This document shows positions 3,173-25,461 of a stretch of DNA of 64,000 nucleotides, piece after piece. Origin of the DNA: Oligoflexia bacterium. GTDB taxonomy: Bacteria > Bdellovibrionota > UBA1018. Made by a program: the position numbers and the translations under genes. The notes beneath the pieces are model-generated. The model was given only the letters and a program-made list of their open reading frames with translations, was not told where the DNA came from and made no database searches. The DNA is taken from the NCBI GenBank assembly GCA_023701205.1, contig JAMPXJ010000006.1, forward strand, positions 86,404 through 150,403, written 5' to 3'. Position 1 is the first letter of the stretch. Every line of letters begins with the position of its first letter.

Positions 3173-4216
3173 ATGGCGGCCTTGGATTACGCGCAGTCGG
3201 GAGTGAATCGCGAAGCGGCGGACCGTCTGGTCGAACGGATCGCGCTCCTGGCGAAAGCCACCTTGAACCGGAGGGTGAAAGCCGCCGTGGGCGGGTACGC
3301 TTCCCTTTTCGAACTCGATCGGAAACGCTGGCTTGCCGCCTCGACCGATGGCGTGGGGACGAAGCTCAAGCTCGCGTTCCGGCTGCGCGAGCACCGGACG
3401 GTAGGCGTCGATCTGGTCGCGATGTCGGTGAACGACATTCTTTGCGTCGGCGCCGAGCCGCTTTTCTTCCTCGATTACTTCGCTACGGGCCGGCTCGATC
3501 CGGGAGTGGCCGAGCAGGTGCTCGAAGGGATCGTCGAGGGCTGCCGGCAGTCGGGCTGCGCGCTCGTGGGCGGCGAGACCGCCGAGATGCCGGAATTTTA
3601 CGCGGCGGGGGAATACGACCTGGGTGGCTTCGCCGTGGGGCTGGTCGAGCCCCGGCGGGCGCTGCCTTCGCGCGAGATCCGCGCGGGCGATGTGCTCGTG
3701 GGTCTGGGCTCGAGCGGCTGTCACAGCAACGGTTATAGCCTGCTCAGAAAGCTTCTGCCCGAGGGCGCCGAGGGCGACGCGCGGGCGCGTGAGCTGCTCA
3801 CGCCGACGCGGATCTATGTCAAGGCGGTGAGAAAGCTCCTGGAGCGCGGGTGGGTGAAAGGCCTGGCTCATATCACGGGCTCAGGCTACCTCAACGTGCC
3901 GCGCATGTCCGAACGGGTGAGTTATCGGATCTCGCTGCCGCCGCGCGCGGAGCTTCCCTCGATTTATGACTGGGTTCGCGAGCGTTCGGGACTGCCGTTT
4001 TCGGAGCTCGCGTGCACTTTCAATCTGGGGATCGGGATGGTGCTCGTCGTTCCGGCCCGTAAAGCGGAAGAAGCCGTGAAGCTCGCCCGGCGCGCGGGCG
4101 AGAAGGCCTGGATCATCGGCGAGGTGACGGGAAAGGCGCGGGGCCGGGATTCCTCGGTCGCGATCTCGCAGGAAGGCGAGACGGCGGTGCTGGATTATGG
4201 GTCTGATTCCGGCTGA
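3173..4216 (+). CDS. purM: Phosphoribosylformylglycinamidine cyclo-ligase (AIR synthetase) PurM
   Basis: DYAQSGVN..., STDGVGTKLKLAF, VNDILCVGAEPLFFLDYFATG motifs; start moved to the second ATG (3173) so the N-terminus aligns with the canonical PurM start. Confidence 0.9.
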   Translation: MAALDYAQSGVNREAADRLVERIALLAKATLNRRVKAAVGGYASLFELDRKRWLAASTDGVGTKLKLAFRLREHRTVGVDLVAMSVNDILCVGAEPLFFLDYFATGRLDPGVAEQVLEGIVEGCRQSGCALVGGETAEMPEFYAAGEYDLGGFAVGLVEPRRALPSREIRAGDVLVGLGSSGCHSNGYSLLRKLLPEGAEGDARARELLTPTRIYVKAVRKLLERGWVKGLAHITGSGYLNVPRMSERVSYRISLPPRAELPSIYDWVRERSGLPFSELACTFNLGIGMVLVVPARKAEEAVKLARRAGEKAWIIGEVTGKARGRDSSVAISQEGETAVLDYGSDSG

Positions 4217-9793: not shown

Positions 9794-10732
9794 TTACTGC
9801 AGGGGCGGCGCTTCGGCGGGCGGTGTTTCGATGGGCGGAGCTTCGACAGGAGGCGTTTCAACGGGTGGCGCTTCCGCGGGCGGGAGGTCGGGCGTCGGCA
9901 GATCGGCGGGCGGCGCCTCGGGCTGCAGCGGGGGCTCGGGTAGCGGAGCCGTTTCACCCGCCGGCGCTTCCGCCGGAGGTGGCGCGACGGGCTCCTGAGG
10001 CGCTTCGGGCTGCGGCTGCTGCTCCGGCTCGGCCGGCTGTTCCTCGGTCGGCTGCTGCGTCGCTTCGGCGGCGCGCCGGGCGTCTTCAGCCGCGCGCTTC
10101 TGCCGGTAGACCATTTTCCAGGGTTTTTCCGGCTGCTCCAGGTAGAAAGGCATGCTGAGGCCCAGACTGACCTGGTTGTAATCGGCGGATTGCAGCAGGG
10201 GGAGGCTTTTTGGACGGGTGCCGGAGACATTCCCGAAAAGCATCCGATCATAGAAGAGATTGATCAGGAGTTTTTCCGAGAGGAAATAGCCCATTCCCAA
10301 GCGGAAAGCGAACTTGCCTCCCATGCTCATCGCGGCGTCCGTATAGCCGGACGCCAGTTGCAGGGTTCCGGTCAGTCGGAGCGGGATATACTTGAGGTTT
10401 CCGCCGATCGAGGCGCCGGCGGTAAAGATCATCCCGGACTGCTCAGGGGAGATTTCCGCCAGAAGCACCCCAGGCTCGATCGCAAAGAAAATATCCTGTC
10501 TTTCGATGCCCAATCTCACCGAGCCGCCGAAGCCGAACGTGAGGCCCGAGCCTGATGCTTCATCGAGCACCGAGGAGACGCCGAGCCCGCCGCTTACGAT
10601 CGGCTCGATGAGCATCGCAGCTCGCGCGGGCTGAGGCGCCAGCGGCAGGATCGAAAGGATGGCGAGAAGAGAAAGCTGTGAACGGATGCGCGAGGCGCGC
10701 GGCGCGGGATTTTTTCTGATCAGCTTTATCAT
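9794..10732 (-). CDS. Outer-membrane beta-barrel-like protein with C-terminal Pro/Glu/Ala-rich repeat domain
   Basis: Signal peptide (LSLLAILSILPLAPQPARA|A); alternating amphipathic strands (GFGGSVRLGIE, KFAFRLGMGYFLS, INLFYDRMLFG); C-terminal 100 aa of PPxEx repeats. Confidence 0.6.
   Translation of the reverse strand: MIKLIRKNPAPRASRIRSQLSLLAILSILPLAPQPARAAMLIEPIVSGGLGVSSVLDEASGSGLTFGFGGSVRLGIERQDIFFAIEPGVLLAEISPEQSGMIFTAGASIGGNLKYIPLRLTGTLQLASGYTDAAMSMGGKFAFRLGMGYFLSEKLLINLFYDRMLFGNVSGTRPKSLPLLQSADYNQVSLGLSMPFYLEQPEKPWKMVYRQKRAAEDARRAAEATQQPTEEQPAEPEQQPQPEAPQEPVAPPPAEAPAGETAPLPEPPLQPEAPPADLPTPDLPPAEAPPVETPPVEAPPIETPPAEAPPLQ
9803..9892. repeat. Six tandem imperfect 15-bp units encoding the PPAEA/PPVET repeats of the upstream OMP
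   Basis: gggcggcgcttcggc / gggcggtgtttcgat / gggcggagcttcgac / aggaggcgtttcaac / gggtggcgcttccgc / gggcgggaggtcggg read directly. Confidence 0.6.
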
Positions 10733-10885
10733 GAATTGTCTTCAGGATCGGTGGGCTCCCTTCTTTTGTCAAGAAGAGCGGCCCGGCGGAACGTCGAAAT
10801 CTTGACGGCGCGTTCGCGGGGTCTCGCGAACCGGACCAAAAAACTTGCTGGAATTCAGGGGAAAGAGTTAGACTTTTTTAAAGTC

Positions 10886-11716
10886 ATGAAAAGCCATGGA
10901 AATCTTTTGGAGAAGCCTACGGGAACGATCAATCCGACGGGAGTCGCGGCGGCAGCTCCGGAGCGCGCCGGACTCAGGGCCTGGTTTCTGAAGCTGCTGC
11001 TGATCCTGGTGGCGATGCTCTGGCTCACCCTGATCGGGGCGAGCTGGATGCAGGGCGCGGAGGCCGCGCAGGCCGGCGGCGGCGAGTCGCCGGCAGACGA
11101 GTACAGCTTCAAGTGGCTGGACCCCGAGAAGAAGATCTACGTTCTGCAGAACCGGAGATATCTCAAGGCCAATCGGCTGCTTTTGAGCGCGATGGCGGGG
11201 CCGGGGCTTTCGAATCCCTATCGTACGACCTTGAGCCTGGAGCCGCGCGCGGCTTTCTACTTCCGCGAGGATCTGGGCCTGGAGGTCTTCTATCGCCGCG
11301 GCTTCAACACCTCGAACAACGCTTTCAAGGCGCTGGTGGCGACGAATTCCGCGGTTTACCCGGTGATCCGCGAGATCCGCTCCGAGTACGGGGCATTGAT
11401 GCATTGGGTGCCCTGGTACGCGAAGATCAACGTCTTCAACAAGATCCTCTATTTCGACTGGTATCTTTCGGGCGGCGCCGGCCAGCTGCAGACCTGGGTC
11501 AACCGGGATGCGCGCTTCCCGGAAGGCGAGTTCCTGCAGCAGGATCTTTTCGGTCTCTTCCTGGGAACCGGTCATCAGTACCATCTTTCCCGCGGGCTGA
11601 CTGTGCGGCTGGATATCACGGGGGCCTTCTATCAGGCGCCGACTTTCGGGAGCACGGGGGATCAGGTGTGGTTCTCGGACTACAACTTCGGCTTCGGCCT
11701 GGGATTGCGGATCTGA
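10886..11716 (+). CDS. Outer-membrane beta-barrel-like protein (GltA/GltB-like candidate)
   Basis: Hydrophobic N-terminal segment then AEAAQA; amphipathic beta-strand pattern; C-terminal ...YNFGFGLGLRI typical of OM barrel termini; start chosen at the internal ATG 10886 (longest ORF starts 10736). Confidence 0.55.
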   Translation: MKSHGNLLEKPTGTINPTGVAAAAPERAGLRAWFLKLLLILVAMLWLTLIGASWMQGAEAAQAGGGESPADEYSFKWLDPEKKIYVLQNRRYLKANRLLLSAMAGPGLSNPYRTTLSLEPRAAFYFREDLGLEVFYRRGFNTSNNAFKALVATNSAVYPVIREIRSEYGALMHWVPWYAKINVFNKILYFDWYLSGGAGQLQTWVNRDARFPEGEFLQQDLFGLFLGTGHQYHLSRGLTVRLDITGAFYQAPTFGSTGDQVWFSDYNFGFGLGLRI

Positions 11717-13236
11717 TGCGCGCAGCGGCTCTGCTCATCGCGGCGACGGTTCTCTCGGGGGGCGTCGCGGGCGCCGAGGAGCTTTCGGGCGCGGCCGCGA
11801 TCCGGGATGCCCAGGCGCTTTACCGCTCGGGGCAGTATTTCAAGGCGGCGCGCTACGCTTTCAGCGCGAAGGAGGCGGATCCGGGCCTCGCGGCGGAATC
11901 GTATTCCTGGGTCGCGCGCGGGCTGATTCGCGCGCGCCTCTATCACTCGGCTTCCTATTTTTTCATCAAGACGCTTCAGCAGAAGGACAAGGCCGCCATC
12001 CGTCGCGTGCTCGTCGACACGCAGGAGCTCATGGTCCGGGTGGGGCCCGATCTGCTCCGGCGCTATCTCCTCCAGCACACGCAGCTCGAGGATTACGATG
12101 CGCTCAACCGAAGCGCCTATCTCTACGCGCTCGGCAAGGACGCGCTCCTCGGCGGCAAGGAGGAGAAGGCGGTCGGGTACCTGAGCGCCATGAGCCCCAA
12201 GAGCCCGCTCTGGCCTTATGCGCTGCAGCTCCGCGGCTCGGCCCAGGCGATCCTGGGACGGGGAGACGCGGCGCTCGGGGATTTCCGCGGCTGCGCGGCG
12301 CTTTCGGATTCGTCGCCGGAGCTCGAGGATCTCGAGGCGCGCTGCAGGGCGGGCGAGGCGCGCACCCTGTATCAGCTGAATCGCTTCGAGGAGGCCGATC
12401 TGACCTATGACCAGATTCCGAAGACGAGCCTGGTCTGGCCCGACATCCTTTTCGAGCAGGCGTGGAACGCCTTCGCGCGCAACGAGTTCAACCGCTCTCT
12501 GGGCAAGCTGGTTTCCTACAAGAGTCCCGCGCTGAGCTTCGTCTTCAATCCCGAGATCGAGGTCCTGCGCGCGCAGTCGTTCCTGGCGCTTTGCCTTTAT
12601 GCCGAGGCCAACGACGCGATCAACGATTTCAACGGGAGATACGCGGGCGTGGGGGAGAAGGTGAAACGCCTGGTCGAGGAGAATTCCTCGAACGTGGGCG
12701 CGTTCCATGCGCTCGGCAGGCAGGCGCTTCGCGCCTCGATCACTTCGAAGGACGGCGTGCAGCAGCTGCTCAACCGCTTCGTGCGCGGGCCCTACTTCCA
12801 GACGCTGGTCAAGGCCGAGGAGGCCGCGGCCGCGGAGCTGGCGGTGATCCGTCGCTTCGATGCCGCGCAGCCGGGAGTGACTCACGATCCGAGCAAGGGG
12901 TTCCCGGGCTTCCTCGCGCAGGTCCTGGCCTGGCGCGCGCACTCGGCGCGGATGCTGGGCGGCGTTTTCGTGAAGAACAGCCTCATGGATCACCACGCCG
13001 AGCTGCTCGCGAATTTCGACAAGATGTCCTTCATCAAGCTGGAGATGCTCAAGAGGGCCAAGGAGCAGATCCTGTTGAAGAGCCGCGCCCGGGCCGACCG
13101 CGGCTGGGGGAATATCGAGCCTTCGCGGCAGGATTACCAGTATTACTGGGGCTTCAACGGGGAGTTCTGGAACGACGAGCTCGGTGACTACGTCTTCGGG
13201 CTCGAGTCAGAGTGCGGAGGCCGGAATGGGGCGTGA
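11716..13236 (+). CDS. Secreted TPR-like protein (GltE/AglT-like candidate), 507 aa
   Basis: ATG overlaps the upstream stop (ATGA); signal peptide MRAAALLIAATVLSGGVAGA; helical-repeat-like sequence (AQALYRSGQYFKAARYAF..., ALQLRGSAQAILGRGDAA...); the antisense 438-aa ORF is an Arg/Leu-rich artefact. Confidence 0.65.
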   Translation: MRAAALLIAATVLSGGVAGAEELSGAAAIRDAQALYRSGQYFKAARYAFSAKEADPGLAAESYSWVARGLIRARLYHSASYFFIKTLQQKDKAAIRRVLVDTQELMVRVGPDLLRRYLLQHTQLEDYDALNRSAYLYALGKDALLGGKEEKAVGYLSAMSPKSPLWPYALQLRGSAQAILGRGDAALGDFRGCAALSDSSPELEDLEARCRAGEARTLYQLNRFEEADLTYDQIPKTSLVWPDILFEQAWNAFARNEFNRSLGKLVSYKSPALSFVFNPEIEVLRAQSFLALCLYAEANDAINDFNGRYAGVGEKVKRLVEENSSNVGAFHALGRQALRASITSKDGVQQLLNRFVRGPYFQTLVKAEEAAAAELAVIRRFDAAQPGVTHDPSKGFPGFLAQVLAWRAHSARMLGGVFVKNSLMDHHAELLANFDKMSFIKLEMLKRAKEQILLKSRARADRGWGNIEPSRQDYQYYWGFNGEFWNDELGDYVFGLESECGGRNGA

Positions 13237-16200
13237 GTACGCGATCCTGCCCGCGTTGCTGGCGTTGAGTCTCGCGGCCGGGGTGCCGACGGCGTCGACG
13301 CCCGCGTGGGCTGCGACGAGCGCCTACTCCGAAGCGGAGATCCGCTCGATCGAGACCCCGGACGAGGTCCGGGTGCGCGAGCTGCGCAATCAGGAAATCA
13401 CCCAGCTCAGGATCGCGCTGGGCCGGCGCCTGCCCAACAATCGCCGGGCCGATCTCTATTTCCGTCTCGCGGAGATCTACCTCGAAGCCTACCGCATGGA
13501 ATACCTGCTCGAGGGGCGGGCTCACGAGAAGCGCGTCGAGAGCGGTCGGCAGGAGAAGGGGATCGATCATTCCCGCTCGAGGCCTTATCTGAAGAGCGGC
13601 ATCGCCGCCAGCCGGGAGATCCTGCGCTTCGGGATTCCCTACCCGAAGCTGGATCAGGTGTATTTCTTCCTCGGCTTCAATCACGGGGAGCTCGGGGAGG
13701 AGAAAGAAAGCCTCCGCTATTTCGAGCAGCTCGTGCGCAAGTTCCCCGGTAGCGTTTTCGCGGCGGAAGCTTATCAGCAGATGGGCGACGCCGCGTTCGA
13801 CGCGGGCCAGTTCCGCAAGGCGCAGGGGCATTATGAGGCCGCCACCGAGCTCGCCGCGCGCAAGGGCGCGGGCGACGGGGCGGTGCTGCCCCGGGTGCTG
13901 CACAAGCTGGCCTGGTGCTATTACCGGATCCGGCAGCATGACCGCGCCGTGGAAACCATGAAGCGCGCGATCGCGGCCGCGCGCCGGAGCGACGAGAAGT
14001 TCCTCTCGCTGCGCGAGGAGGCGCTCCGAGACATGGCCGTCTTCATGACGGAGTCCGGAAAAGTGGATGAGGCGGTCGCGTATTTCCAGGAGGCCGCCGG
14101 CGACAAGAGCTTCTATCCGAGGCTGCTCGAGAAGCTGGGCCGGCAGTACGAGCGCGGAGTGGAGCCGGCGAAAGCCACGCAGGTCTACGAGTCGCTGCTG
14201 AAGACGCATCCGGGAAGCGACGCCGCCTTCCGGGTGCTGGTGAAGCTGGTGGACCTCGATTTGCGACGCGGGCGCCATCGCGAAGCCCTGGCCCGCCTGC
14301 GGGACCTTCGCCTGAAGTCCGGGGATGACGAGACACAGGTGGCCTCGCAGAACCTCCGCGCGATGGTGCGGCGGACCGCGACGGAGCATCACGAGAAGTT
14401 CCGTAAGGCCGCGGGCGAGACCGGCGGCTCCGCCCGTTCGAAGGCGTTGCCCGCCCTCGAGATCGCCGAGGCCTTTTACGAGGTCTATCTCGCGACCTTC
14501 CTCGCCCAGGATGATCCCCGCAAGGAGACGCCGGAGATCCAGATGTATCTGGCCGAGGTGAAACGGGATCTCGGCAAGTCCAAGGAAGCGTCGGCGCTGT
14601 ACCGCAAGGTCGTGGATTCGCGTGATTCGCGCTATGCGAAGGAGGCTGGCGCCCTTTGGACGGCGAGTCTCGCCGAGGCGATCCGCAAGGAAATCTCCCA
14701 GGGACAGGCCCAGGGCAAGTCGCAGGAACCCTCGGAGCTGGAACGCGAGTTCATCTCGGCCGCGGACGCGCTCCGGGACGCGATCGGGGACACCGCCGAG
14801 GGACGCGAGGCCGCGCTCAAGGCCGCCGAAGTGCTGGCCGGTTACAAGGGCACCCAGAAGGACGCGATCAAGCGCGTGGAGAAGATCATCGATCGCTGGC
14901 CCCGTTCCGCGCAGGCCGTGACGGCCGCCCGGCTGTGGCTGCAGCTGCTTTCGGATCGCGGCGCGGGCGCTCTCGACGAGCTGAGCGACGCGCTCAAGGA
15001 GCTGCGCGGGAACGGCGTGCTCCTCGCCGCCGATCAGGAGCACGGAAAAGGAAAGCTTCACGCGCAGCTCGCCGAGCTGGAGTCCCGCGTCCGAATCGCG
15101 ACGATTGCGTCGCATGAGAAGGAAATGGACTTCGCCGCCGCCGCGAAGGGGTACGAGGAGTTCGCCCGCGACGCGGCCCAGCGGGAGCTCGCGGAGAAGG
15201 CCTATGCCAACGCGATCGGCAGTCATCTGAAGGCCGGCGACGATGAGGCCGTCGAGCGCGTCGGCCAGGCCTGGCTCAAGCGTTTCCCGAAAAGCCCGAA
15301 GGCCGCGGAGTCCTTGCGGGCAGCGGCGACCCAGCAGCTGGTCGCGGGTCGCTTCGACAAGGCAGCGAGGCTTTTCGAGCGCCTCGGCACCGAGGGCGGT
15401 GAGGCGGATTCGCTGGAAACCTCCGCCCGCATCCATGAGGGGCTCGGCAATGCCGGGGCGCTGACGAGCGCACTCAAGGCCTACCTCGGGACCTATCAGA
15501 CTCCGCAGCGGCCGCAGCTCGCGCTGCAGCTCGCGCGGGCGCTCGAGGCCGCGGGTCAGGACAGCGAGGCTTCCCGTTACTATCGCTTGTGCATGAGCGG
15601 CAGCGGGGAGCTCGAAACCGAATGCGGCGCGCGGCTGGCCGATCTGCATCTGCGCTCCAAGAGCGTGGCCGAAGCCAAGGCGCTCTATCGCAAGGTCGGC
15701 AAGGGCGGGGATTCCCCGTGGGTCGGTTATGCGCGCTACATGCTGGCGTCGATTACGGAGCAGGAGGCGGCTTTTCAGCCGTTGTCGCTTCCGGAAGCCC
15801 GGCTGAAGAAAGCCATGAGCCAACGCCTGGCGTTCGTCGAGACGCTGAGCCGCGCATACAATTCCGCGGTCGAGGCGGGTGGGCCCTGGGCCATCGCCGC
15901 ACTGGACCGGCTGGCGGACTGGGTACTCAGGTTCGCTGACGAGGTGGATGCGATCGCGACGCCCCCGCAGGCCAGCCCCGCGGCGGTCGCGCAGTTCCGA
16001 AAAAGCCTGGCGAGCGTGAGCTTGCCGCTGCGGCGCAAGGCGCTTCAGACCTGGCAGCAGGCCTATGCGAAGTCGGCCGCGGCGGAGGCGCTCAGTCCGG
16101 CGCTCCCGGGCATCGCGGACCGGCTGGCCGACTTCAAGGTGGGAGGCATCGGCAAGGCTCAGGGATTCAGAGGCCGGTTCCGGCTCGCGGGCATTCCCGC

Positions 16201-16864
16201 GAACGGCGGCTCCGAGGGAGGCGCGGCCTTGGAGAAGACGCGCGAAAGGCTTGCGAAGAACCTGCAGGACGCCGGCGCCTGGGTCGATTACGGCAATCTG
16301 CTTTGGGGCCAAGGCAAGCCGTTGCTCTCGAAGCTGGCTTATGATCGCGCACTGGCGCTCAACGCGCGCAATCCCGCGGCACTGAACAACCGCGCCGTCG
16401 TGGAGCTGAGTCTCGCGGACGCCGAGGATGACTGGAGCCTGGCGGCGGGAGCTTACGAGCGTTTCAAGAGCGCGCTCCGGCAGGACGAGTTCTTCCTTCC
16501 GGCGAAGTTCAACCGGGCGGCCCTGCTGAACTATTACCGGATCTTCGCGAAGGCCAAACCGCTCTGGGAGCAGGTGCTCGCCAAGGGCGCCAATGCCGAC
16601 GCGCAGGAGGGTCTCGGGATCGCGCTGCAGGGGCTGGGCAAGTCCGAGGCCGCCGCGGAGGGCTTCCGCAAGGCGGCCGCATCCGGAGGCTCCGCCTCGC
16701 GTTTCGTGTTCGCCTATCACGAGGCCGCGCGGGAGCCGGAGAGCTGCCAGGCGCGGCTCGAAGAGCTCGATGCGGGCTCGCTTTCCGGCTTCGAGAAGGC
16801 CGCGGTCGAGCGCCTCAGGAAAACGTGTTCCATGCGACAACCAACCTCGGGGAAATCAAGATGA
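13226..16864 (+). CDS. Giant secreted TPR-repeat protein (~1212 aa; GltD/AgmU- or NfsD-like candidate)
   Basis: Signal peptide MGREYAILPALLALSLAAGVPTAS; numerous TPR-like repeats (AEAYQQMGDAAFDAGQFRKAQGHYEAA...); start overlaps the upstream stop; an equally long antisense ORF (13154..16840) is rejected on composition. Confidence 0.75.
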   Translation: MGREYAILPALLALSLAAGVPTASTPAWAATSAYSEAEIRSIETPDEVRVRELRNQEITQLRIALGRRLPNNRRADLYFRLAEIYLEAYRMEYLLEGRAHEKRVESGRQEKGIDHSRSRPYLKSGIAASREILRFGIPYPKLDQVYFFLGFNHGELGEEKESLRYFEQLVRKFPGSVFAAEAYQQMGDAAFDAGQFRKAQGHYEAATELAARKGAGDGAVLPRVLHKLAWCYYRIRQHDRAVETMKRAIAAARRSDEKFLSLREEALRDMAVFMTESGKVDEAVAYFQEAAGDKSFYPRLLEKLGRQYERGVEPAKATQVYESLLKTHPGSDAAFRVLVKLVDLDLRRGRHREALARLRDLRLKSGDDETQVASQNLRAMVRRTATEHHEKFRKAAGETGGSARSKALPALEIAEAFYEVYLATFLAQDDPRKETPEIQMYLAEVKRDLGKSKEASALYRKVVDSRDSRYAKEAGALWTASLAEAIRKEISQGQAQGKSQEPSELEREFISAADALRDAIGDTAEGREAALKAAEVLAGYKGTQKDAIKRVEKIIDRWPRSAQAVTAARLWLQLLSDRGAGALDELSDALKELRGNGVLLAADQEHGKGKLHAQLAELESRVRIATIASHEKEMDFAAAAKGYEEFARDAAQRELAEKAYANAIGSHLKAGDDEAVERVGQAWLKRFPKSPKAAESLRAAATQQLVAGRFDKAARLFERLGTEGGEADSLETSARIHEGLGNAGALTSALKAYLGTYQTPQRPQLALQLARALEAAGQDSEASRYYRLCMSGSGELETECGARLADLHLRSKSVAEAKALYRKVGKGGDSPWVGYARYMLASITEQEAAFQPLSLPEARLKKAMSQRLAFVETLSRAYNSAVEAGGPWAIAALDRLADWVLRFADEVDAIATPPQASPAAVAQFRKSLASVSLPLRRKALQTWQQAYAKSAAAEALSPALPGIADRLADFKVGGIGKAQGFRGRFRLAGIPANGGSEGGAALEKTRERLAKNLQDAGAWVDYGNLLWGQGKPLLSKLAYDRALALNARNPAALNNRAVVELSLADAEDDWSLAAGAYERFKSALRQDEFFLPAKFNRAALLNYYRIFAKAKPLWEQVLAKGANADAQEGLGIALQGLGKSEAAAEGFRKAAASGGSASRFVFAYHEAAREPESCQARLEELDAGSLSGFEKAAVERLRKTCSMRQPTSGKSR

Positions 16865-17172
16865 CTTCCGCTTTTCGCGTGCTGTTTTTCATACTGACTC
16901 TCGCGGCGATCGGGGGCGTCTCCTTCGCCGCGGGCCTCGCCTGGGCGATCTCGGCGGAAGCCGCGGAACGGGACGGCGGCAAGGGCCGTTCCAAGGTCGT
17001 CTATCCCGAGAAGACGGAGCTGGATTTCGAGGGGCTGGCGATCGAAGGCGAGATCCGCAATCCGGGGGAATTCTACTTCCAGCACCGCACCGAGGAGAAG
17101 TTCGACTCGCTCGTGAAGCGGCGGCGCGACTTCCACCGCGAGATGCTGCGCGACGCGGTACTGGGAAAATAA
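16861..17172 (+). CDS. Small secreted protein (GltF-like candidate), ~103 aa
   Basis: ATGA overlap with the giant TPR gene; signal peptide MTSAFRVLFFILTLAAIGGVSFAAGLAWA; immediately upstream of the FHA protein. Confidence 0.5.
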   Translation: MTSAFRVLFFILTLAAIGGVSFAAGLAWAISAEAAERDGGKGRSKVVYPEKTELDFEGLAIEGEIRNPGEFYFQHRTEEKFDSLVKRRRDFHREMLRDAVLGK

Positions 17173-17184
17173 CGGAGAAGCACC

Positions 17185-19269
17185 ATGGATCACGGCGAGC
17201 AGGGCCCAAACGACGAGACCGTCACCGAAACATCCCGCAACGCGCCCCTGGCGCGCAAGGCGGCGCTCTTCTCCCTCGAGGTTCCCGCGGGCGGCGCTCC
17301 GCTCGAGGCGGATCAACAGCGCGTCTTCCGCCTGGGCAAGGAGCGCATCGTCGTAGGCTCGGTCGTTTCGGCTGACGTCCGGCTCCTGGGCAAGGGCGTG
17401 GCCCCGCTTCACGCGGTGGTCGAGATCACGGGCGCGCTTTCGGGCGAGCCCGAGGCCACCGTATACGATCTGGCGAGCGATTCCGGCGTTTTCGTCAACG
17501 GTCGGAAGATCGTGACCGGCGCCCTGAAGCCGGGCGATCTGCTGCGGGTGGGGCCGCACGAGCTTCGCTTCTCGATCAGCGACGCCGAGAAGGTGGTGCC
17601 GCGCGAGCGGGTGCGCGAGGCCGAAGGCCGCAAGCTCTATCTCAATCCCGATGAGGACCTGGCGCCGCTTCTGCTTCAGAGCGACGGCGAGGTGGATAAG
17701 ATCTTCGACTTCAGCCCGTGTCGCAAACGGGCGCTCGCGGTCGTGATGTCCTGGCACGGGACGATCATCGACGTGGAGCATTTCGTGAAGGAGAAATCCG
17801 TCACCGTCGGCGCCAACCGCAGGAGCGATTTCGCCATTCCGCCGCTGCTCTCGTCGAGCCGCTACGCGATCGTCACGCGGAGCGGGGAGGACTTCGTCCT
17901 GAATCTCGATCCGCAGATGAAAGGCGTGATCCAGCGCAAAGGCAAGCTCGAGACGTTCGAGGGGATCCGCGAAGGCGCATCGGTCGCCGGGCCGCAGAGC
18001 TATGGCATCCCGATCGGCAACGAGGATTTCGCCAAGGTTTCCATCGGCGACGTCGACTTCTACCTGAGCTACACCGACGCGCCCCCGCGCGTGAAGGCGG
18101 GCCGGCTGCTCGATCGCGATCCCTTCTTCCTGCGGGTCTTCGCGACTTCCCTGCTTTTCACCGCGGTCACGATCGGGGCCATGCTCAACGCCAACGTCCC
18201 GCAGAACCTCGAGGCCGAGCAGATCCCCGAGCGGATCGCGACGATCCTCTATCAGCCGGAGAAATACAGCGCACGCCCGAAGCGTGCGCCTGAGCCCTCG
18301 AGGCCCGAGCCCGTGAGAGCCGAGACCGCGAGGCCGCAGCCCAAGCCCACGCAGGTGGCGAAGCTCGACCTTCAGCCGAATCCGGCGAACGCCAAGAAGC
18401 CCGTGCCCAAGGAAATGAACGTGGGCGCGAAGCCCGAGGTCGCGAAGAATCCGGGCGGCTCCAAGAAGAAAAGCCCGGGCCAACGCGAGGCCAAGGAAGG
18501 ACGCGGCGCGCGCGCCAAGGGTACCGAAGGCAAGAGAGGCAGTCCCAAGGCCGCTCCTGGCGACAAGCCTCAGGACAGGGCGATGCGCGCATCGGCGCAG
18601 GGAGGTCCGGGGCGCGGCGGGGGCGCAAGCCAGGTCGAGAGCATCGGCAACGTGGACTTCCTGAGCTCCGCGGGCGCGAAGATTTCAGACATCCTCGGCA
18701 ACAGCGCCGAGAAGCTCGGCAAGGGCGGTGAGCGACTCAAGGGCTTCGGCGGTTTCACCACGCAAGGGGGCGGGGGGCTCGCGCTCTCCGGTGACGGCAA
18801 GGGCGGCGGCGGGACGGCCGATTCCCTGGGCGGCCTCGCCACGAGCGGTACCGGCGGCGGGCGAGTGGGCACCGGCAAGGGCGCCGCGGGCTTGGGCAGC
18901 GGCATGATCGGAGGCAAGGCGCGCGTGGCGATCCGCACGGGCGGTCCCGAGGAGGCTGTCGTCATGGGCTCCATCGACGCCAGCGCGGTCGAAGCCGCGC
19001 TGCTCGCGCACCGGGACGAGTTCCGGCTCTGCTACGAAAAGGAAATCAACGCCGAGACGCCTGATCTTGCGGGCCGCGTGAGCACGAGCTTCGTGATCGG
19101 CTCCACGGGCCGAGTGACCCAGGCGGGCATCGAGTCGACGACCCTGAAGCACGCCAATACCGAGCGCTGCGTGCTGAACGTGATCCGGCGGATCGACTTC
19201 CCGATCCCGCGCGGGGCGGGCATCGTGCAGGTTACCTATCCGTTCAAGTTCAATCCGACGCGGCGCTAG
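17185..19269 (+). CDS. FHA-domain / single-TM / Pro-Lys-rich and Gly-rich linker / TonB_C-like periplasmic domain protein (GltG/PglI-like candidate)
   Basis: FHA-like N-terminus (VFRLGKERIVVGSVVSADVRLLGKGVAPLHAVVE...VYDLASDSGVFVNGRKI...LRVGPHELRF); TM helix FFLRVFATSLLFTAVTIGAML; PKP/KPE-rich then GGxG-rich linkers; C-terminal TonB_C-like pattern (...STSFVIGSTGRV...CVLNVIRRIDFPIPRG...VTYPFKF); SD ggagaag before ATG. Confidence 0.75.
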   Translation: MDHGEQGPNDETVTETSRNAPLARKAALFSLEVPAGGAPLEADQQRVFRLGKERIVVGSVVSADVRLLGKGVAPLHAVVEITGALSGEPEATVYDLASDSGVFVNGRKIVTGALKPGDLLRVGPHELRFSISDAEKVVPRERVREAEGRKLYLNPDEDLAPLLLQSDGEVDKIFDFSPCRKRALAVVMSWHGTIIDVEHFVKEKSVTVGANRRSDFAIPPLLSSSRYAIVTRSGEDFVLNLDPQMKGVIQRKGKLETFEGIREGASVAGPQSYGIPIGNEDFAKVSIGDVDFYLSYTDAPPRVKAGRLLDRDPFFLRVFATSLLFTAVTIGAMLNANVPQNLEAEQIPERIATILYQPEKYSARPKRAPEPSRPEPVRAETARPQPKPTQVAKLDLQPNPANAKKPVPKEMNVGAKPEVAKNPGGSKKKSPGQREAKEGRGARAKGTEGKRGSPKAAPGDKPQDRAMRASAQGGPGRGGGASQVESIGNVDFLSSAGAKISDILGNSAEKLGKGGERLKGFGGFTTQGGGGLALSGDGKGGGGTADSLGGLATSGTGGGRVGTGKGAAGLGSGMIGGKARVAIRTGGPEEAVVMGSIDASAVEAALLAHRDEFRLCYEKEINAETPDLAGRVSTSFVIGSTGRVTQAGIESTTLKHANTERCVLNVIRRIDFPIPRGAGIVQVTYPFKFNPTRR

Positions 19270-19279
19270 TACTGCGTCC

Positions 19280-19403
19280 GCGAGGAGACTATCCTAACTC
19301 AGCTCAGGCTCGCGGGGGACATCCTGTCCACAACAAACCCTCGCCTGGACCCTCCTGGTCCAGCTCGGCTTATCAGCTGAGCTGAGTAGGATAGTCTCCT
19401 CGC
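19280..19403. repeat. Near-perfect 27/28-bp inverted repeat separated by 69 nt, between convergent genes
   Basis: Arm1 19280-19307 GCGAGGAGACTATCCTAACTCAGCTCAG; arm2 19377-19403 CTGAGCTGAGTAGGATAGTCTCCTCGC (reverse complement with a single 1-nt indel); smaller hairpins inside (ggaccctcctggtcc) and downstream (aggcccggcatagcgggcct; ggctcgctttgcgagcc). Confidence 0.7.
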
Positions 19404-19483: not shown

Positions 19484-20056
19484 CTACTCCTTCTTAAGCG
19501 CGAGGAACCGGAAGACCTTGTAGCCGGCGGCGGCCGAGGTGTACATCACGCGCCGAACCGTCTCGTACTGCACGCGTTTGTCGGCCTGGATGGCCAGGAC
19601 GCCCTCGAACGGCAGGGGGTTGCCCTTCTCGTCGCGGGTCTTGGACTTCGCGCGCAGCAGCTCGGCCTTGTCCCGCGCCTTCGTCAAGGCGTCATAGAGC
19701 GGCACGATCCGGCGTCCGCCCTCGTCGAGGTCCGTTTTCCTGAATTCGTAGCTCGGTCCCGAGCCATCGAGGCTCGCCGCCGTCTGCACGAACTCGAGGA
19801 TGCGCTCGTTCTCGAAAGTGACCGCCTCGGGCGTGATGATGACCTGCAGGCTCTCCGGGGGCATTTCCTCCGAACGCGAGATCGGAAGCTGCATGCCCGG
19901 GACGGTGGTAAAGGTATTGATCGTCGTCGAGTAGCTCTTCAGGAGGAAAACGACGATGATCACCAGCACGTCCATCATGCTCGTGAGCTGGAGCTCGAAG
20001 ACCTGATTGATCTTGCGCCGGCCCCGGCGCGAGCGGATCGAGCGGTGGAAGGCCAT
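19484..20056 (-). CDS. ExbD/TolR-family biopolymer transport protein (AglS-like candidate)
   Basis: Basic N-terminus, single TM (LTSMMDVLVIIVVFLL), periplasmic ExbD-like domain; ATGA overlap with the upstream ExbD gene. Confidence 0.8.
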   Translation of the reverse strand: MAFHRSIRSRRGRRKINQVFELQLTSMMDVLVIIVVFLLKSYSTTINTFTTVPGMQLPISRSEEMPPESLQVIITPEAVTFENERILEFVQTAASLDGSGPSYEFRKTDLDEGGRRIVPLYDALTKARDKAELLRAKSKTRDEKGNPLPFEGVLAIQADKRVQYETVRRVMYTSAAAGYKVFRFLALKKE

Positions 20057-20613
20057 CAGCTGTCCCCTCCCGGCGCGGAAAGCAGGTTTCCGAAGATGAT
20101 CTCCGGGAAAAGCTTCTTCACGGCTTCATCGTTGCCGCTCTGGGGGTTGCGGGCGAAGATCGGGGCATCCGTCGCCTCGACGGCCCGTGCGGAGTCCATC
20201 AGCGAGACCAGGACGTCGTAGGTCGTGGCCGCGTGAGGAACGAGCACGAGCTTCGTCTCATTGGGGAAGAGCTTCTTGATCTCGAGCAGCCCTGAGTGGA
20301 TGCCGGCGATGTCGGGCTGGCCAGGCAGCGCGTGGGGGATCTTCTTCGAGGCGAACTTCTCGAACGGGCTCCACAGCTCGGTGTCCGACTCGTGGACCGA
20401 GACGGTGAGCTGCAGGGGCTTCTCCTTGAGCTGCTCCTCCATCTCCTTTTCGCTCGAGATGGGGAAGGGCGACTCGATGTGCACGATCGAGAGGAACGAG
20501 GTCGTGAAAAGGAGGAATCCGATCAGCGTGACCATGGTGTCGAGGATCGGCACCAGGTTGAGGTTGATCCCTTCGGCGGAGGATTTGCGGCGGGAGCTCG
20601 GGCGCTTGAGCAC
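20056..20613 (-). CDS. ExbD/TolR-family biopolymer transport protein (AglQ-like candidate)
   Basis: INLNLVPILDTMVTLIGFLLF TM and ExbD-like periplasmic domain; 6 nt downstream of the TolQ-like gene. Confidence 0.75.
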   Translation of the reverse strand: MLKRPSSRRKSSAEGINLNLVPILDTMVTLIGFLLFTTSFLSIVHIESPFPISSEKEMEEQLKEKPLQLTVSVHESDTELWSPFEKFASKKIPHALPGQPDIAGIHSGLLEIKKLFPNETKLVLVPHAATTYDVLVSLMDSARAVEATDAPIFARNPQSGNDEAVKKLFPEIIFGNLLSAPGGDS

Positions 20614-20619
20614 GGCCCG

Positions 20620-21288
20620 TCACTCCGCCTTCTGCGCGCCCTGGCGGTACTTGCGTGCCGAGAGCAGATCCAGGAGCTTCACGCCGAACTCATCGATCTC
20701 CTCGAGCAGGCGGCTGGCCTGGTTCGAGAGGATGCTGTGGGCGATCATCGTGAAGATCGCGGTGATCAGGCCGAACGCCGTGGCGTTCATGGCCTCCGAA
20801 ATACCCGCCGAAAGGATCGCTTGCCGCTGCGCCGGATCCGCCTGCGCGATCGCCGCGAAGGACTTGATCAGGCCGCTGATGGTGCCCAGGAGGCCCAGCA
20901 GGGTGGCGATATTGGCGATCAGGGCGAGATAGGGAAGGCGCCGCTCGAGCTTCGGGATCATCTCCAGGCTCGTGGCATCGATCGCGTTCTGGATCTGGTT
21001 CTCGTCGCGCGAAGCGCGTTGCAGCCCGGCTTTGATGACCTTGGCCAGGGCCTTGTTGCCCCCGCCGTTACAGAGGCGGATCGCGCCGTCGATGTCGTTG
21101 GCCAGGATGTATTTCTGGACCTCGAACATGAAGGAGGCTCCGTCGACGTTGTACTGGATATAGAGCCGGTAAGCCCGCTCGATCGTCAAGGCGACGGAAA
21201 CGGCCAGGGAGATCGCGATGGGGATCATCCAGGCTCCGCCTGTTTGGAAGGCCGCGATCATGCTGTTGATGAAGCTCGTTTGTTCCAT
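20620..21288 (-). CDS. MotA/TolQ/ExbB-family proton channel (AglR-like candidate)
   Basis: Three TM segments and conserved C-terminal TolQ/ExbB region (LALIANIATLLGLLGTISGLI...AISEAMNATAFGLITAIFTMIAHSIL); heads a three-gene operon. Confidence 0.85.
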   Translation of the reverse strand: MEQTSFINSMIAAFQTGGAWMIPIAISLAVSVALTIERAYRLYIQYNVDGASFMFEVQKYILANDIDGAIRLCNGGGNKALAKVIKAGLQRASRDENQIQNAIDATSLEMIPKLERRLPYLALIANIATLLGLLGTISGLIKSFAAIAQADPAQRQAILSAGISEAMNATAFGLITAIFTMIAHSILSNQASRLLEEIDEFGVKLLDLLSARKYRQGAQKAE

Positions 21289-21404
21289 GAGCTTGGGTCT
21301 CCTTCGAATGGACGCGCGTGAAATGGGCGCGAGTATTGGAATTCCTTAGTTAAAGGATAACGGATTTGACGAGGCGGTCAATGGATTAACCCGCGGGGAA
21401 GGGC

Positions 21405-21441
21405 AAAAAAGAAGGGGCCGCCTCTTTCGAGGAAGCCCCCC
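21405..21441 (-). terminator. Rho-independent terminator downstream of trxA (minus strand)
   Basis: Minus-strand RNA GGGGCUUCCUCGAAAGAGGCGGCCCC followed by UUCUUUUUUG: GC-rich stem with GAAA loop and U-tract. Confidence 0.5.
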
Positions 21442-21466: not shown

Positions 21467-21799
21467 TCAAAGATGCTTCTGGACCACCTGGCTGAGCGTG
21501 TCTTTCGGGTGATTGCCCACGAGCTGATCGACGAGCTGGCCGTTCTTGAAAAACAGGACCGTCGGAATCCCGCGGATGTGATAGCGGCTCGGCGTCGCCG
21601 GATTCTCGTCGACGTTCATCTTGTAGACATTCATCTTGCCGGCGAATTCATCGGCGAGGGCGTCGATGGTGGGACCGAGCAGGCGGCAAGGGCCGCACCA
21701 TTCGGCCCAGAAATCGACGAGCGCAAGCTGCGCGGATTTCAGGACTTCGGATTCGAAATTGCCGTCAGTCGCGGCACGGACATTGGGTGAATTTGCCAT
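21467..21799 (-). CDS. trxA: Thioredoxin
   Basis: WCGPC active site, 110 aa, canonical thioredoxin length and fold signature. Confidence 0.9.
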   Translation of the reverse strand: MANSPNVRAATDGNFESEVLKSAQLALVDFWAEWCGPCRLLGPTIDALADEFAGKMNVYKMNVDENPATPSRYHIRGIPTVLFFKNGQLVDQLVGNHPKDTLSQVVQKHL

Positions 21800-22009
21800 G
21801 AAAGATTCCTCTCTTCTCAGTGATCTCTAGGTAATCCCGATTGACCCAAAATAGCTGCCAAAAAAGCCGTGTCAAAAAAGTTTGCCAAAAAGTTTGGTGA
21901 AAAGGTCATTTCCTAATAAAATCGGCTTTAGCGTGATCGGGTTACCATTTTTCCTGAAAATGGTCGAGAGATTTAGTTTATAATTCCGTATGGTTGGGAT
22001 TGAAAGTTC

Positions 22010-22486
22010 ATGCTAGTCGCACTCAGCTTGGATCTGAAACCGGTTCCCGCACGTCAGAAAGTCGGCGTGCTCAACCGTGTTTCCGCCAAAATGATCGATA
22101 TCCTCCTGATCATCGGCGTCGCGGCGATTCTGCCCTACCCCCTGGGGCCGCTCCTCGCGTTTCTCTACAGCCTTTTGGCCGATGGATTGAATTTCGGCCC
22201 GTTTGCCGGACAGAGCGTCGGCAAGCGCCTCATGCGGCTGCAGGTGGTCAACGTCAAGACCCGCAAGCCTGCCAGCTACCGTGACTCGATGCTTCGCAAT
22301 ACCCCGGTCGGGGTGGCGACCTTTTTCGCGATCATTCCGGTGTGGGGCTGGCTCATCCTGGTCCTGGTCGGGGTGCCTCTCATGGTCATGGAGATCTACC
22401 TGATGATGAGCGTCGAGGCCGGCCATCGCCTGGGCGACGTGATGGGGGATTCCGAGGTCATCGAATTGCCGCGCCAGAGCAGCTAA
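22010..22486 (+). CDS. RDD-family membrane protein
   Basis: Hydrophobic segments with conserved R...D..D spacing (RLMRLQVVNVKTRKPASYRDSMLRN) typical of the RDD family. Confidence 0.55.
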   Translation: MLVALSLDLKPVPARQKVGVLNRVSAKMIDILLIIGVAAILPYPLGPLLAFLYSLLADGLNFGPFAGQSVGKRLMRLQVVNVKTRKPASYRDSMLRNTPVGVATFFAIIPVWGWLILVLVGVPLMVMEIYLMMSVEAGHRLGDVMGDSEVIELPRQSS

Positions 22487-22527
22487 CGGGTGCGGCCCAG
22501 GTTTTTGTTGTGCTATGAGGGGAGGAT

Positions 22528-25461
22528 ATGTCCAAGCCCCTCTTCGCCGATCCGGAGCACACGCTCTATCTCCTCGACATCAGCTCCTTCATCTTCCGGG
22601 CCTTCTTCGCGATCCGTTCCCTGAGCACGCGAAGCGGCGAGCCCGTGAATGCGGTGTACGGAGTGGCCACGATGCTCGCCCGGATCGCCGAGGAGGCGCG
22701 CCCGCAGTACCTCGCGGTGGCTTACGATTCCCCGGAGCCTTCGTTCCGCGAGGAGCTCTATGCGGAGTACAAGGCCAATCGCTCGGAGCCCCCCGAGGAC
22801 CTCATCCCTCAGTTCGCGCGGATCGAGGAGCTGGTGCGGCGCTTCGAGATCCATTCCTACCGCATGCCCGGTCTCGAAGCCGATGACCTGATCGCAACAC
22901 TCGCGCGCAAGTGGTGCGCGGAATCGCCTGTGAACCGCGCCGTGATCGTGACGGGCGACAAGGATCTCATGCAGCTCGTGGATGAGCGTACGCGGGTCTG
23001 GGACACGATGGCGCAGAAAATTTACGGCCCGGACGAGGTCTTCGAGAAGATGGGCGTGCGCCCCGATCAGATCCGCGATTACCTCGGGCTGGTCGGCGAC
23101 AGCTCCGACAATATCCCCGGAGTGGCGGGGGTCGGCCCCAAGACCGCCGCGGAGCTGCTCAAGGAGTACGGCGATCTCGACCGCATCCTGGCCGCGGCCG
23201 CCGTCGGCAAGATCAAGGGCAAGCGCGGCGAGACGCTCGCCGCGAGCGAGAAGGTGGCGCGGCTTTCGGCGGAGCTTGCGACCGTGCGCTCGGACCTGGA
23301 CGTTCAGCTCCGGCGAGACGAGCTCGTCTACCGCTTTCATGTCAACGAGAAGTGCCGGGACTTCCTGCTCTCGATGGACTTCAACTCGCTCGTGGCGCGT
23401 TGGGCGAAGGACGCTCAGGAAGGGGTGGTCAACGGAGTGAAGGCGTCTGTCCCTCTCGCCACGCAGGCCGCGTCTCCGAAAACCGCGGAACTTGCGACCA
23501 CCGGGCAGGCCTCCTTCGCGCTGGAGGCACCGGGTTTCGCCGGCGCGGCTCCGCCTGCTGCTGATTCCGCCCCTCCGGTCACGCCTGCCTCCGCGCCCGC
23601 TCCCGCGACCGTGAATCTTCCCGCGCTCGTGGGCCCGGACAAGATCTTCCGCACAGTGAATACCGAAGACGATTTCCAGGCGCTGCTCGCCGCCCTCGAG
23701 AAGGCGCACGAGGTGGGCTTCGATCTGGAGACCACCTCGCTCAATCCGCGCCAGGCCGAGATCGTGGGCTTCGCCCTTTGCCATGACCCGAAGTTCGCCT
23801 GCTACGTACCCGTGGGCCATCGCCCAAGCCTCGCGGGTCCGCCCGTGGAGCAGCTTTCGCTTTCGCGCGTGCTCGAAGGGCTCCGGCCTTTCCTGGAGGA
23901 TCCCCGCCGCAAGAAGATCGGGCAGAACCTCAAGTACGACTGGAACGTCCTGGCCGCTCACGGCGTGCATGCCGACGGGATCGGCGCCGACACGATGGTC
24001 GCCGCCTACGTGCTCGATCCCGAGGGGCGGCACAACCTGGCGACCCTGGCCGCCTCTTATCTCGACTATTCGGTGCTCACCTACGAGCAGGTCTGCGGCA
24101 AAGGCAAGGACGCGCTTTCCTTCGATCAGGTGCCCATCGATCTTGCGACCCGGTATTCGGCCGAGGACGCCTGGATCGCCATGCGGCTCTGGCTCCAGCT
24201 CAAGGAGCGCCTCGCGCAGGAGCGCTTAATGGAGGTCTTCGCGCGCGTGGATCTCCCGCTCGTGCAGGTGCTGGCCGACATGGAGTCCGAGGGCGTCTCG
24301 ATCGATACGGAGTGGCTGCGGCAGCTCTCCGAGGAATTTTCGCGCGAGCTGCGCGCGATCGAAAGCCGTATCCAGGCTTACACCTCGGGCCCGATCAACC
24401 TCAATTCCCCCAAGCAGCTCGCTGTGCTGCTCTTTGAGCAGCTCAAGCTCCCGGTGCAGGGCAAGACCAAAACGGGCTACTCCACCGATGCGCAGGTGCT
24501 CGAGACGCTCGCGCCGCTGCACGAGGTTCCGCGGCTGCTGCTGGAGTACCGCGAGATCTCCAAGCTCAAGGGGACGTACGTCGATCCGCTTCCGCTGATG
24601 CGCGATTCGAAGACGGGAAAGATCCACGCGAGCTTCCACCAGACGGTGGCCGCCACGGGGCGGCTTTCGAGCTCCGAACCCAATCTCCAGAACATCCCGA
24701 TCCGGACGGAGCGCGGGCGTAAGATCCGCCGAGCCTTCGTCCCCTCGCCGGGGAATGTCCTGGTTGCGGCCGACTACAGCCAGATCGAACTCCGGCTGCT
24801 CGCGCACATGAGCGGGGATCCGGAGCTCGGGCGCGCGTTCCGCGAGGACGAGGACGTCCATCGACAGACCGCCGCCGAGATCTTCCGCATTCCGGGCGCG
24901 GAGGTCGACGAGCGCCAGCGCGGCATTGCCAAGGCGATCAACTTCGGCCTGATGTACGGCAAGACCGCCTTCGGGCTCGCGCAGGAGCTCAAGATCTCCC
25001 GCAAGGAGGCGCAGGAGACGATCGACCGCTACTTCCAGCGCTACGGCGCCGTGAAGCGCTTCCTCGATCAGCAGATCCTCGACGCGCGCGAGAACGGCTA
25101 TGTCACGACGCTTCTTGGCCGCAAGCGCGCGCTTCCCGATATCGCTTCCAGGAATCAGGCGATCCGCAACAACGCCGAGCGCATGGCCATGAACTCGCCC
25201 ATCCAGGGCACGGCCGCGGATCTCATGAAGCTCGCGATGACCGAGCTCGCGCACCGCCTGCGCGGCGAAGGCCTGCGCTCGAAGCTCATCATCCAGGTCC
25301 ACGACGAGGTCGTGCTCGATTGCCCGCGCGAGGAGGCCGAAGCCGTCAAGGCGCTCGTGACCCGCGTGATGGAATCCTCGGGCGATGGGCATCTGGGCAT
25401 GAAGCTCTCCGTCCCCCTGCGCGTGAACGCGGCGGTCGGGGCGAACTGGATGGATCTGTAG
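22528..25461 (+). CDS. polA: DNA polymerase I
   Basis: 5'-nuclease N-terminus (LYLLDISSFIFRAFFA), 3'-5' exo and polymerase motifs (RRAFVP...DYSQIELR; KAINFGLMYG; QVHDE); 977 aa. Confidence 0.95.
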   Translation: MSKPLFADPEHTLYLLDISSFIFRAFFAIRSLSTRSGEPVNAVYGVATMLARIAEEARPQYLAVAYDSPEPSFREELYAEYKANRSEPPEDLIPQFARIEELVRRFEIHSYRMPGLEADDLIATLARKWCAESPVNRAVIVTGDKDLMQLVDERTRVWDTMAQKIYGPDEVFEKMGVRPDQIRDYLGLVGDSSDNIPGVAGVGPKTAAELLKEYGDLDRILAAAAVGKIKGKRGETLAASEKVARLSAELATVRSDLDVQLRRDELVYRFHVNEKCRDFLLSMDFNSLVARWAKDAQEGVVNGVKASVPLATQAASPKTAELATTGQASFALEAPGFAGAAPPAADSAPPVTPASAPAPATVNLPALVGPDKIFRTVNTEDDFQALLAALEKAHEVGFDLETTSLNPRQAEIVGFALCHDPKFACYVPVGHRPSLAGPPVEQLSLSRVLEGLRPFLEDPRRKKIGQNLKYDWNVLAAHGVHADGIGADTMVAAYVLDPEGRHNLATLAASYLDYSVLTYEQVCGKGKDALSFDQVPIDLATRYSAEDAWIAMRLWLQLKERLAQERLMEVFARVDLPLVQVLADMESEGVSIDTEWLRQLSEEFSRELRAIESRIQAYTSGPINLNSPKQLAVLLFEQLKLPVQGKTKTGYSTDAQVLETLAPLHEVPRLLLEYREISKLKGTYVDPLPLMRDSKTGKIHASFHQTVAATGRLSSSEPNLQNIPIRTERGRKIRRAFVPSPGNVLVAADYSQIELRLLAHMSGDPELGRAFREDEDVHRQTAAEIFRIPGAEVDERQRGIAKAINFGLMYGKTAFGLAQELKISRKEAQETIDRYFQRYGAVKRFLDQQILDARENGYVTTLLGRKRALPDIASRNQAIRNNAERMAMNSPIQGTAADLMKLAMTELAHRLRGEGLRSKLIIQVHDEVVLDCPREEAEAVKALVTRVMESSGDGHLGMKLSVPLRVNAAVGANWMDL

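Follow-up and report, generated by a model that had tools for sequence, protein, structure and literature searches.

A predicted AglRQS-type motor operon adjoining a Glt-like gene cluster in an uncultured Oligoflexia bacterium

Background

The AglR-AglQ-AglS motor of Myxococcus xanthus (MXAN_6862/6861/6860) combines one TolQ-like subunit with two distinct TolR/ExbD-like subunits, encoded in the order R-Q-S, and the same composition and order are found in Anaeromyxobacter, of which Adeh_4310/4309/4308 are listed as homologues of the three M. xanthus proteins (Luciano et al. 2011, Table S3, PMC3169522). AglR of M. xanthus interacts with GltG in a two-hybrid assay (PMC3169522), and a complex of composition AglR5QS-GltG has been predicted (PMC11761067, 2025). 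Here we describe an operon of the same make-up, together with the Glt-like genes beside it, on a stretch of 64,000 nucleotides (nt), below called the window, from an Oligoflexia bacterium of the Bdellovibrionota (GenBank assembly GCA_023701205.1, contig JAMPXJ010000006.1, positions 86,404 to 150,403 of the forward strand; all coordinates below are those of the window).

Within the same phylum, Bdellovibrio bacteriovorus HD100 carries four Agl-Glt clusters, Bd0413-0420, Bd0828-0838, Bd1474-1481 and Bd2369-2377 (PMC3169522). As judged from published lists and protein sizes, these clusters hold the same gene set as the locus described here, i.e. an outer-membrane (OM) barrel, GltC, GltD, GltF, GltG, AglR, AglQ and AglS. 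More distant counterparts are the 5:2 motors TolQ-TolR and ExbB-ExbD of Escherichia coli, which belong to the same superfamily and presumably share its mechanism. Since Agl-Glt clusters in Bdellovibrio (2011), the presence of two TolR-like subunits and the idea of an AglR5QS heterodimer (2025) have already been published, the locus is not of a new kind.

The agl-like operon

The operon probably encodes an AglRQS-type motor driven by the proton motive force and working beside Glt-like partners, with gliding as its most likely output. Its identity as a motor of this type is well supported by comparative sequence evidence, namely gene content, orthology to AglR, AglQ and AglS, the key residues and a conserved linkage to glt-like genes. 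The three genes lie on the reverse strand (-):

20620-21288 (-): aglR-like gene, 222 amino acids (aa); Pfam MotA_ExbB, 3.2e-28
20056-20613 (-): aglQ-like gene, 185 aa, GTG start; Pfam ExbD, 7.5e-9
19484-20056 (-): aglS-like gene, 190 aa; Pfam ExbD, 3.6e-13

An initial annotation had placed one MotA/TolQ/ExbB-type and two ExbD-type genes of these lengths at these positions, as is confirmed by the list of open reading frames (ORFs) and by Pfam. The G+C content at third codon positions (GC3) is 0.88-0.91 in the three frames, and the start codons of both small-subunit genes are backed by conserved N-termini in alignments of homologues. A ribosome-binding site, GAAGGAGA, precedes the aglR-like gene. 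The tight spacing that had been described holds for the aglR-like/aglQ-like junction, a gap of 6 nt; the second junction is not the ATGA overlap proposed, but a 1-nt overlap in TGATG (...AGC TGA TG GCC).

The proteins encoded in the window (222/185/190 aa) are similar in size to those of M. xanthus (245/162/194 aa) and Anaeromyxobacter (224/162/194 aa), the AglQ-like protein being about 20 aa longer than AglQ of either genus. The paralogue-specific matches to AglQ and AglS and the transmembrane (TM) Asp in both small subunits, described below, are further features shared with the Agl motor.

The large subunit

A genome scan for related loci listed, among its matches, 80 loci of Bdellovibrionota, Myxococcota and other groups, none of them from M. 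xanthus or B. bacteriovorus. As proxy for AglRQS we used L073, a locus of an Anaeromyxobacter metagenome-assembled genome (MAG), which is usable as such because its proteins of 224/165/191 aa match Adeh_4310/4309/4308 (224/162/194 aa). The AglR-like protein aligns with the AglR of this locus over the full length (164 bits, 40% identity), and with E. coli TolQ (46 bits) and ExbB (42 bits) only in the C-terminal half; its match to solved TolQ/ExbB structures in a PDB sequence search is likewise confined to residues 110-208. Three hydrophobic segments (18-39, 123-148 and 169-187) are seen in the hydropathy profile. Residues T136 and T170, which are invariant in 73 family members, align with T145 and T178 of E. 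coli TolQ.

Among 1.84 billion representative sequences searched, 166 matched the AglR-like protein at E<=1e-30, all of them over the full length and with 35-47% identity, and this set defines, as judged from sequence, an AglR-like subfamily distinct from TolQ and ExbB. P0141, a member that was sampled, lies in a MotA_ExbB-ExbD-ExbD-955 aa-TPR-FHA cluster, which has the composition termed the "core complex" by Luciano et al. 2011 (PMC3169522). The AglR-like protein is identical to one recorded from an "Oligoflexia bacterium" MAG, and more than 100 proteins of Bdellovibrionota MAGs are 75-87% identical to it. Two homologues with 77-81% identity (P0004 and P0107) carry the NCBI labels Methylotenera sp. 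and Xanthomonadaceae bacterium; since all other close matches are from Bdellovibrionota, mis-binning or mislabelling of the MAG contigs is the probable cause.

The shared Pfam superfamilies, and the fact that the nearest solved structures are those of TolQ, ExbB and ExbD, would also fit a divergent canonical TolQR or ExbBD energiser with a duplicated TolR/ExbD, serving tolA/tolB/pal or tonB elsewhere in the genome. The likeness to TolQ and ExbB limited to the C-terminal half argues against this, as do the NCBIfam models, all of which score far under their cut-offs (tolQ, 79.9 against 221 and 50 against 403; exbB, 47.4 against 206; tolR, 17.6 against 127.3; ExbD models, 20-22 bits against 123-216). 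In a simple, only indicative neighbour-joining (NJ) tree with two E. coli outgroups, all AglR-like proteins are separated by a long branch from TolQ and ExbB, and the window protein falls in a trxA-linked clade of Bdellovibrionota.

The two small subunits

The two ExbD-type proteins are paired specifically and reciprocally with the two Anaeromyxobacter subunits, the first with AglQ and the second with AglS, with identities of 23-25%. Best match of the AglQ-like protein is AglQ (3.8e-8, compared to 0.18 for AglS, 0.03 for ExbD and 0.06 for TolR), and that of the AglS-like protein is AglS (1.6e-12, compared to 3.7 for AglQ, 9e-5 for ExbD and 0.006 for TolR). Of 79 loci listed, 70 have exactly two ExbD-type genes after the AglR-like gene; in each of these, the first gene scores with the AglQ-like protein of the window only, and the second with the AglS-like protein only, so that the order is fixed. 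Both paralogues being nearer to AglQ or AglS than to TolR/ExbD, and forming old, order-conserved groups, not a recent duplication, speaks against the duplicated TolR/ExbD of a Tol or Ton energiser. The AglR-AglQ-AglS layout first suggested for the operon, as opposed to TolQRA or ExbBD-TonB, is supported by the Anaeromyxobacter matches, the NJ tree, the R-Q-S order in these loci and the failed NCBIfam cut-offs.

Each small subunit has a single TM helix in the hydropathy profile, with D25 in the AglQ-like and D29 in the AglS-like protein; these residues align with D23 of TolR and D25 of ExbD. The alignment of the TM Asp and of the TolQ channel residues asked for in the initial annotation therefore gives matching counterparts in TolR, ExbD and TolQ for D25, D29, T136 and T170. 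At the AglS position, the TM Asp is retained in all 76 second-position paralogues of the loci listed.

At the AglQ position, the TM helix has Asn where the window protein has Asp, giving the motif P-x-M-N-L, in 24 loci from Myxococcota and others, most of which belong to the core-complex type (L023, L024, L026, L028, L030, L031, L033, L035, L038, L040, L047-L049, L051, L052, L054, L057, L062, L064, L071, L074, L077, L083, L086). This suggests for the Asn-type clade a stator heterodimer with a single protonatable Asp; the pair in the window keeps Asp in both proteins.

The small subunits are about 43-49 aa longer than ExbD (141 aa) and TolR (142 aa) of E. coli, in agreement with the excess of 40-50 aa noted initially. 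In the AglQ-like protein the additional length comes from an extended linker and from an additional beta segment or strands at the C-terminus, and in the AglS-like protein from two insertions in the periplasmic domain (at about 93-110, and a long helix at 118-137). The view that this enlargement is a special trait of the operon was not upheld, as 150-200 aa is normal for AglQ/AglS: it is a family trait, because median lengths in the family are 176 aa for the first and 177 aa for the second paralogue, and AglQ and AglS of M. xanthus measure 162 and 194 aa (PMC3169522). On the same medians, the extra ExbD length was rejected as the mark of a new variant. Homologues of both small subunits are abundant and of very constant size, about 181 aa (first) and 191 aa (second).

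AlphaFold models of the two proteins are of moderate quality (pLDDT 75 for the AglQ-like and 65 for the AglS-like protein). With the AglQ-like model, TolR (5by4) is found at Foldseek rank 2, albeit weakly (E 0.019), and the PDB sequence search returned only spurious matches to armadillo repeats. The periplasmic domain of the AglS-like model matches the ExbD structures 8vgc, 8pek and 8p9r at probability 1.00, and the PDB sequence search gave a weak ExbD match. This pattern of weak sequence similarity with a TolR-like fold is also on record for AglQ and AglS themselves, which have been described as structurally like TolR despite identities of 8.5% and 21.4% (PMC11761067).

The converging Glt-like cluster

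A second group of genes, on the forward strand (+), runs towards the agl-like operon from 10.7 to 19.3 kb:

10736-11716 (+): GltA/GltB-type gene for an OM beta-barrel; NCBIfam OMP_myx_plus, 69-70 bits (cut-off of 60 exceeded); conserved beside the gltC-like gene
about 11746-13236 (+): gltC-like gene, about 496 aa from the Met of the signal peptide; NCBIfam gliding_GltC, 1e-26, 94 bits, below the cut-off of 450; conserved neighbour
13184-16864 (+): gltD-like gene, secreted TPR protein of 1226 aa; matches to TPR families only
16825-17172 (+): gltF/cglF-like gene, 115 aa, hydrophobic segment at the N-terminus; NCBIfam gliding_CglF, 1.4e-9, 38 bits, below the cut-off of 90
17185-19269 (+): gltG-like gene, 694 aa; NCBIfam GltG, 3e-55, 188 bits, below the cut-off of 650

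The operon had been called an orphan in the initial annotation; this is refuted by the converging Glt-like cluster and by the retention of the pairing in Bdellovibrionota. The true start of the OM-barrel gene is probably internal to its ORF. For the TPR protein we infer a GltD-like identity from its size and position, which are as in GltD (MXAN_4870; Bd1478, 1237 aa), and from an orthologue with 53% identity in the related locus L008; weak matches to it are also found beside AglR-like genes in Myxococcota loci. The gltF/cglF-like gene is conserved in L008, L011, L014 and L019. In the ORFs of this region, the NCBIfam models for GltD, GltE, GltA and GltB gave no match even at E<=10.

The GltG-like protein, encoded by a conserved neighbour of the agl-like operon, is made up of an FHA domain (56-123; Pfam 2.3e-8), a TM helix at about 316-336, a Pro-rich and then Gly-rich linker, and a TonB-like domain of the AgmX/PglI type (597-690). 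This C-terminus scores above the cut-off with the myxo_SS_tail (AgmX/PglI) model (80 bits, cut-off 40) and below it with the TonB_C-like models (Pfam, 17.8 against 24.6, E 0.0048; NCBIfam tonB_Cterm, 22.1 against 27.1). By sequence, the protein is a distant homologue of GltG and not a strict equivalog, and it presumably acts as a force transducer docking on the motor.

The locus differs in organisation from those described previously. In Myxococcus and Anaeromyxobacter the aglRQS genes lie apart from the glt clusters, whereas they abut them in the window. Compared with the HD100 clusters, the agl-like operon is linked to trxA and convergent with the glt-like genes, and no GltE-like gene is recognised; sizes in the window are near those of Bd0836/0838/0834 (221/196/707 aa) and Bd1480/Bd1478/Bd1477 (185/1237/82 aa). 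Differences from the E. coli motors are the two-paralogue heterodimer in place of a homodimer, the longer small subunits, an alignment restricted to the C-terminal half of AglR and the partner, a GltG-type protein with FHA, TM and TonB-like parts instead of TolA or TonB; the Thr/Asp sites and the ExbD/TolR-like periplasmic fold are shared. The Tol-Pal layout of E. coli, ybgC-tolQ-tolR-tolA-tolB-pal-cpoB, has a single tolR, whereas the window has two ExbD-type genes and no such neighbours. No tolA, tolB, pal, cpoB or canonical tonB was found among the scanned ORFs of the window, the others of which have housekeeping functions or match no family. A GltG-type transducer adjoins the operon, and a canonical Tol or Ton energiser is a very improbable reading. 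A candidate second TolQ/ExbD set at 33-34.6 kb was rejected, as these small ORFs are NusB, NrdR and Peptidase_M17_N-like.

Conservation of the locus in Bdellovibrionota

In twelve of the related loci (L008, L011, L013-L021, L027), spanning 50-81% identity in AglR and including Bacteriovoracaceae and Halobacteriovorax, the arrangement is that of the window, with polA(-) RDD(-) trxA aglR aglQ aglS converging on gltG gltF gltD gltC OMP. It is possible, though we hold this only tentatively, that trxA-linked aglRQS converging on OMP-gltC-gltD-gltF-gltG represents the main gliding engine of Bdellovibrionota and is conserved throughout the phylum. We consider this because AglR-like proteins with 75-87% identity occur in many MAGs, and because the synteny extends from Oligoflexia-like genomes to Bacteriovoracaceae/Halobacteriovorax.

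The block of polA(-), a gene for an RDD-family membrane protein(-), trxA and aglRQS (polA to trxA at 21467-25461 of the window) is syntenic in L003, L007-L022 and L027, which represent distant lineages of Bdellovibrionota, and nusB-nrdR-glyA-rpiB is also found near the agl block in L003. Bdellovibrionota also have a second, paralogous type of cluster, in which OMP-gltC-aglR-aglQ-aglS-...-gltG lie on one strand and AglR is 40-48% identical to that of the window (L029, L032, L039, L041, L043, L044, L053, L059, L060, L067, L070; about 7.4-17.5 kb in each).

Intergenic and flanking features

The following features were identified upstream of the operon and in the gap between the two converging gene groups:

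21799-21467 (-): trxA, upstream of the agl-like operon on the same strand; thioredoxin, 1.1e-35
about 21405-21439 (-): hairpin with U-tract 3' of trxA, GGGGGCUUCCUC-GAAA-GAGGCGGCCCC followed by UUCUUUUUU; minimum free energy (MFE) -21.9 kcal/mol
21354-21381 (-): putative promoter-like sequence TTGACC-16-TATCCT, 5' of the aglR-like gene, from a consensus scan
19280-19403: long inverted repeat (about 124 nt; perfect arms of 17 and 11 nt) in the gap where the gltG-like and aglS-like genes converge

The position and strand of trxA, and a hairpin with U-tract between it and the operon, were found as annotated initially; the terminator status given to the hairpin is weaker, since its energy is ordinary for such G+C-rich sequence (z -1.0) and it was not called as a terminator by a consensus terminator scan. 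It is nevertheless a likely terminator between trxA and the agl-like operon. A single copy of the inverted repeat is present in the window; it folds with MFE values of -80.8 and -74.3 kcal/mol (z -7.5 and -8.6) and is probably a bidirectional terminator. No Rfam match was obtained in the whole window, nor on this repeat. In L008, a different long inverted repeat (11797-11941) occupies the same gap between gltG and aglS.

Divergent from the Glt-like cluster, a gene at 9794-10732 (-) encodes a secreted protein of 312 aa, beta-rich in its N-terminal part and ending in a repetitive tail rich in Pro, Glu and Ala (...ETPPVEAPPIETPPAEAPP...), for which neither a family match nor a counterpart in the related loci was found. 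Further out, downstream of purM, an AddB/AddA-like pair is encoded at 4197-9793 (+), consisting of a protein of 912 aa with a PD-(D/E)XK domain and one of 953 aa with a UvrD helicase and a PD-(D/E)XK domain. The region at about 26.9-31.3 kb has a lower G+C content (0.57) and contains almost no ORFs passing the GC3 gene-calling filter.

Proposed mechanism and function

By analogy with TolQ5R2, ExbB5D2 and the AglR5-AglQ-AglS model, five AglR-like subunits would form a ring in the inner membrane, in which the TM helices of the AglQ-like and AglS-like proteins would sit as a heterodimer, giving a 5:1:1 stoichiometry. The Asp residues D25 and D29 would face T136 and T170 of the AglR-like subunits, and proton flow via these Asp/Thr sites could drive conformational work. 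This work may be handed to the GltG-like transducer, with its FHA domain, TM helix, Pro-rich linker and TonB-like C-terminus, which would in turn transmit the force to the GltF-, GltD- and GltC-like proteins of the periplasm and outer membrane and to the OM barrel. Surface gliding of the Bdellovibrionota host would be the most likely output; both this function and the coupling to the GltG-like protein are suggested by analogy with the described Agl-Glt systems.

Alternatively, the motor may be of AglRQS type and its Glt-like partners serve an envelope task other than locomotion, such as moving or positioning material on the cell surface, as in the Myxococcus Nfs spore-coat system, a step specific to predation (prey entry or exit), or whatever role the core complex has in non-gliders. 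The core Agl-Glt complex (aglRQS with gltD, E, G and C) is also present in bacteria for which no gliding is known and is insufficient for motility (Luciano et al., PMC3169522), no clear GltE-, GltH-, GltI-, GltJ- or GltK-like gene was detected in the window, and the strong conservation of AglR across many MAGs comes with a housekeeping neighbourhood. On the other hand, the locus has the group-A additions tied to gliders by Luciano et al., namely a GltF/CglF-like protein and an OM barrel, and B. bacteriovorus glides and carries four such clusters (PMC3169522). We regard an envelope task of this kind as rather unlikely.

Like the occurrence of the core complex outside known gliders and the undetected GltE-, GltH-, GltI-, GltJ- and GltK-like genes, several further points weigh against the gliding motor. 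A 2026 review describes the gliding machinery of Bdellovibrio as still unidentified. The GltG-, GltC- and CglF-like scores lie under the NCBIfam equivalog cut-offs, and in the close relative L003 trxA-aglRQS is kept with no glt-like genes detected within about 9 kb downstream. The orthology to AglRQS rests on the Anaeromyxobacter proxy and not on M. xanthus itself, and the AglR tree, with its two outgroups, is only indicative. An AglRQS-type motor beside Glt-like partners, most likely for gliding, remains the probable reading of the operon.

The locus thus provides a well-resolved example of an Agl-Glt system from an uncultured lineage of Bdellovibrionota, and it shows that synteny is conserved in this phylum between the motor operon, the adjoining Glt-like genes and the nearby trxA and polA. 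The phylum-wide conservation of the trxA-linked locus is of modest interest in itself, and the block can guide the choice among paralogous clusters when candidates for the gliding motor of predatory Bdellovibrio-like bacteria are tested. If the trxA-linked locus were indeed the primary gliding engine, it would offer a concrete knockout target for motility in prey scouting and exit.

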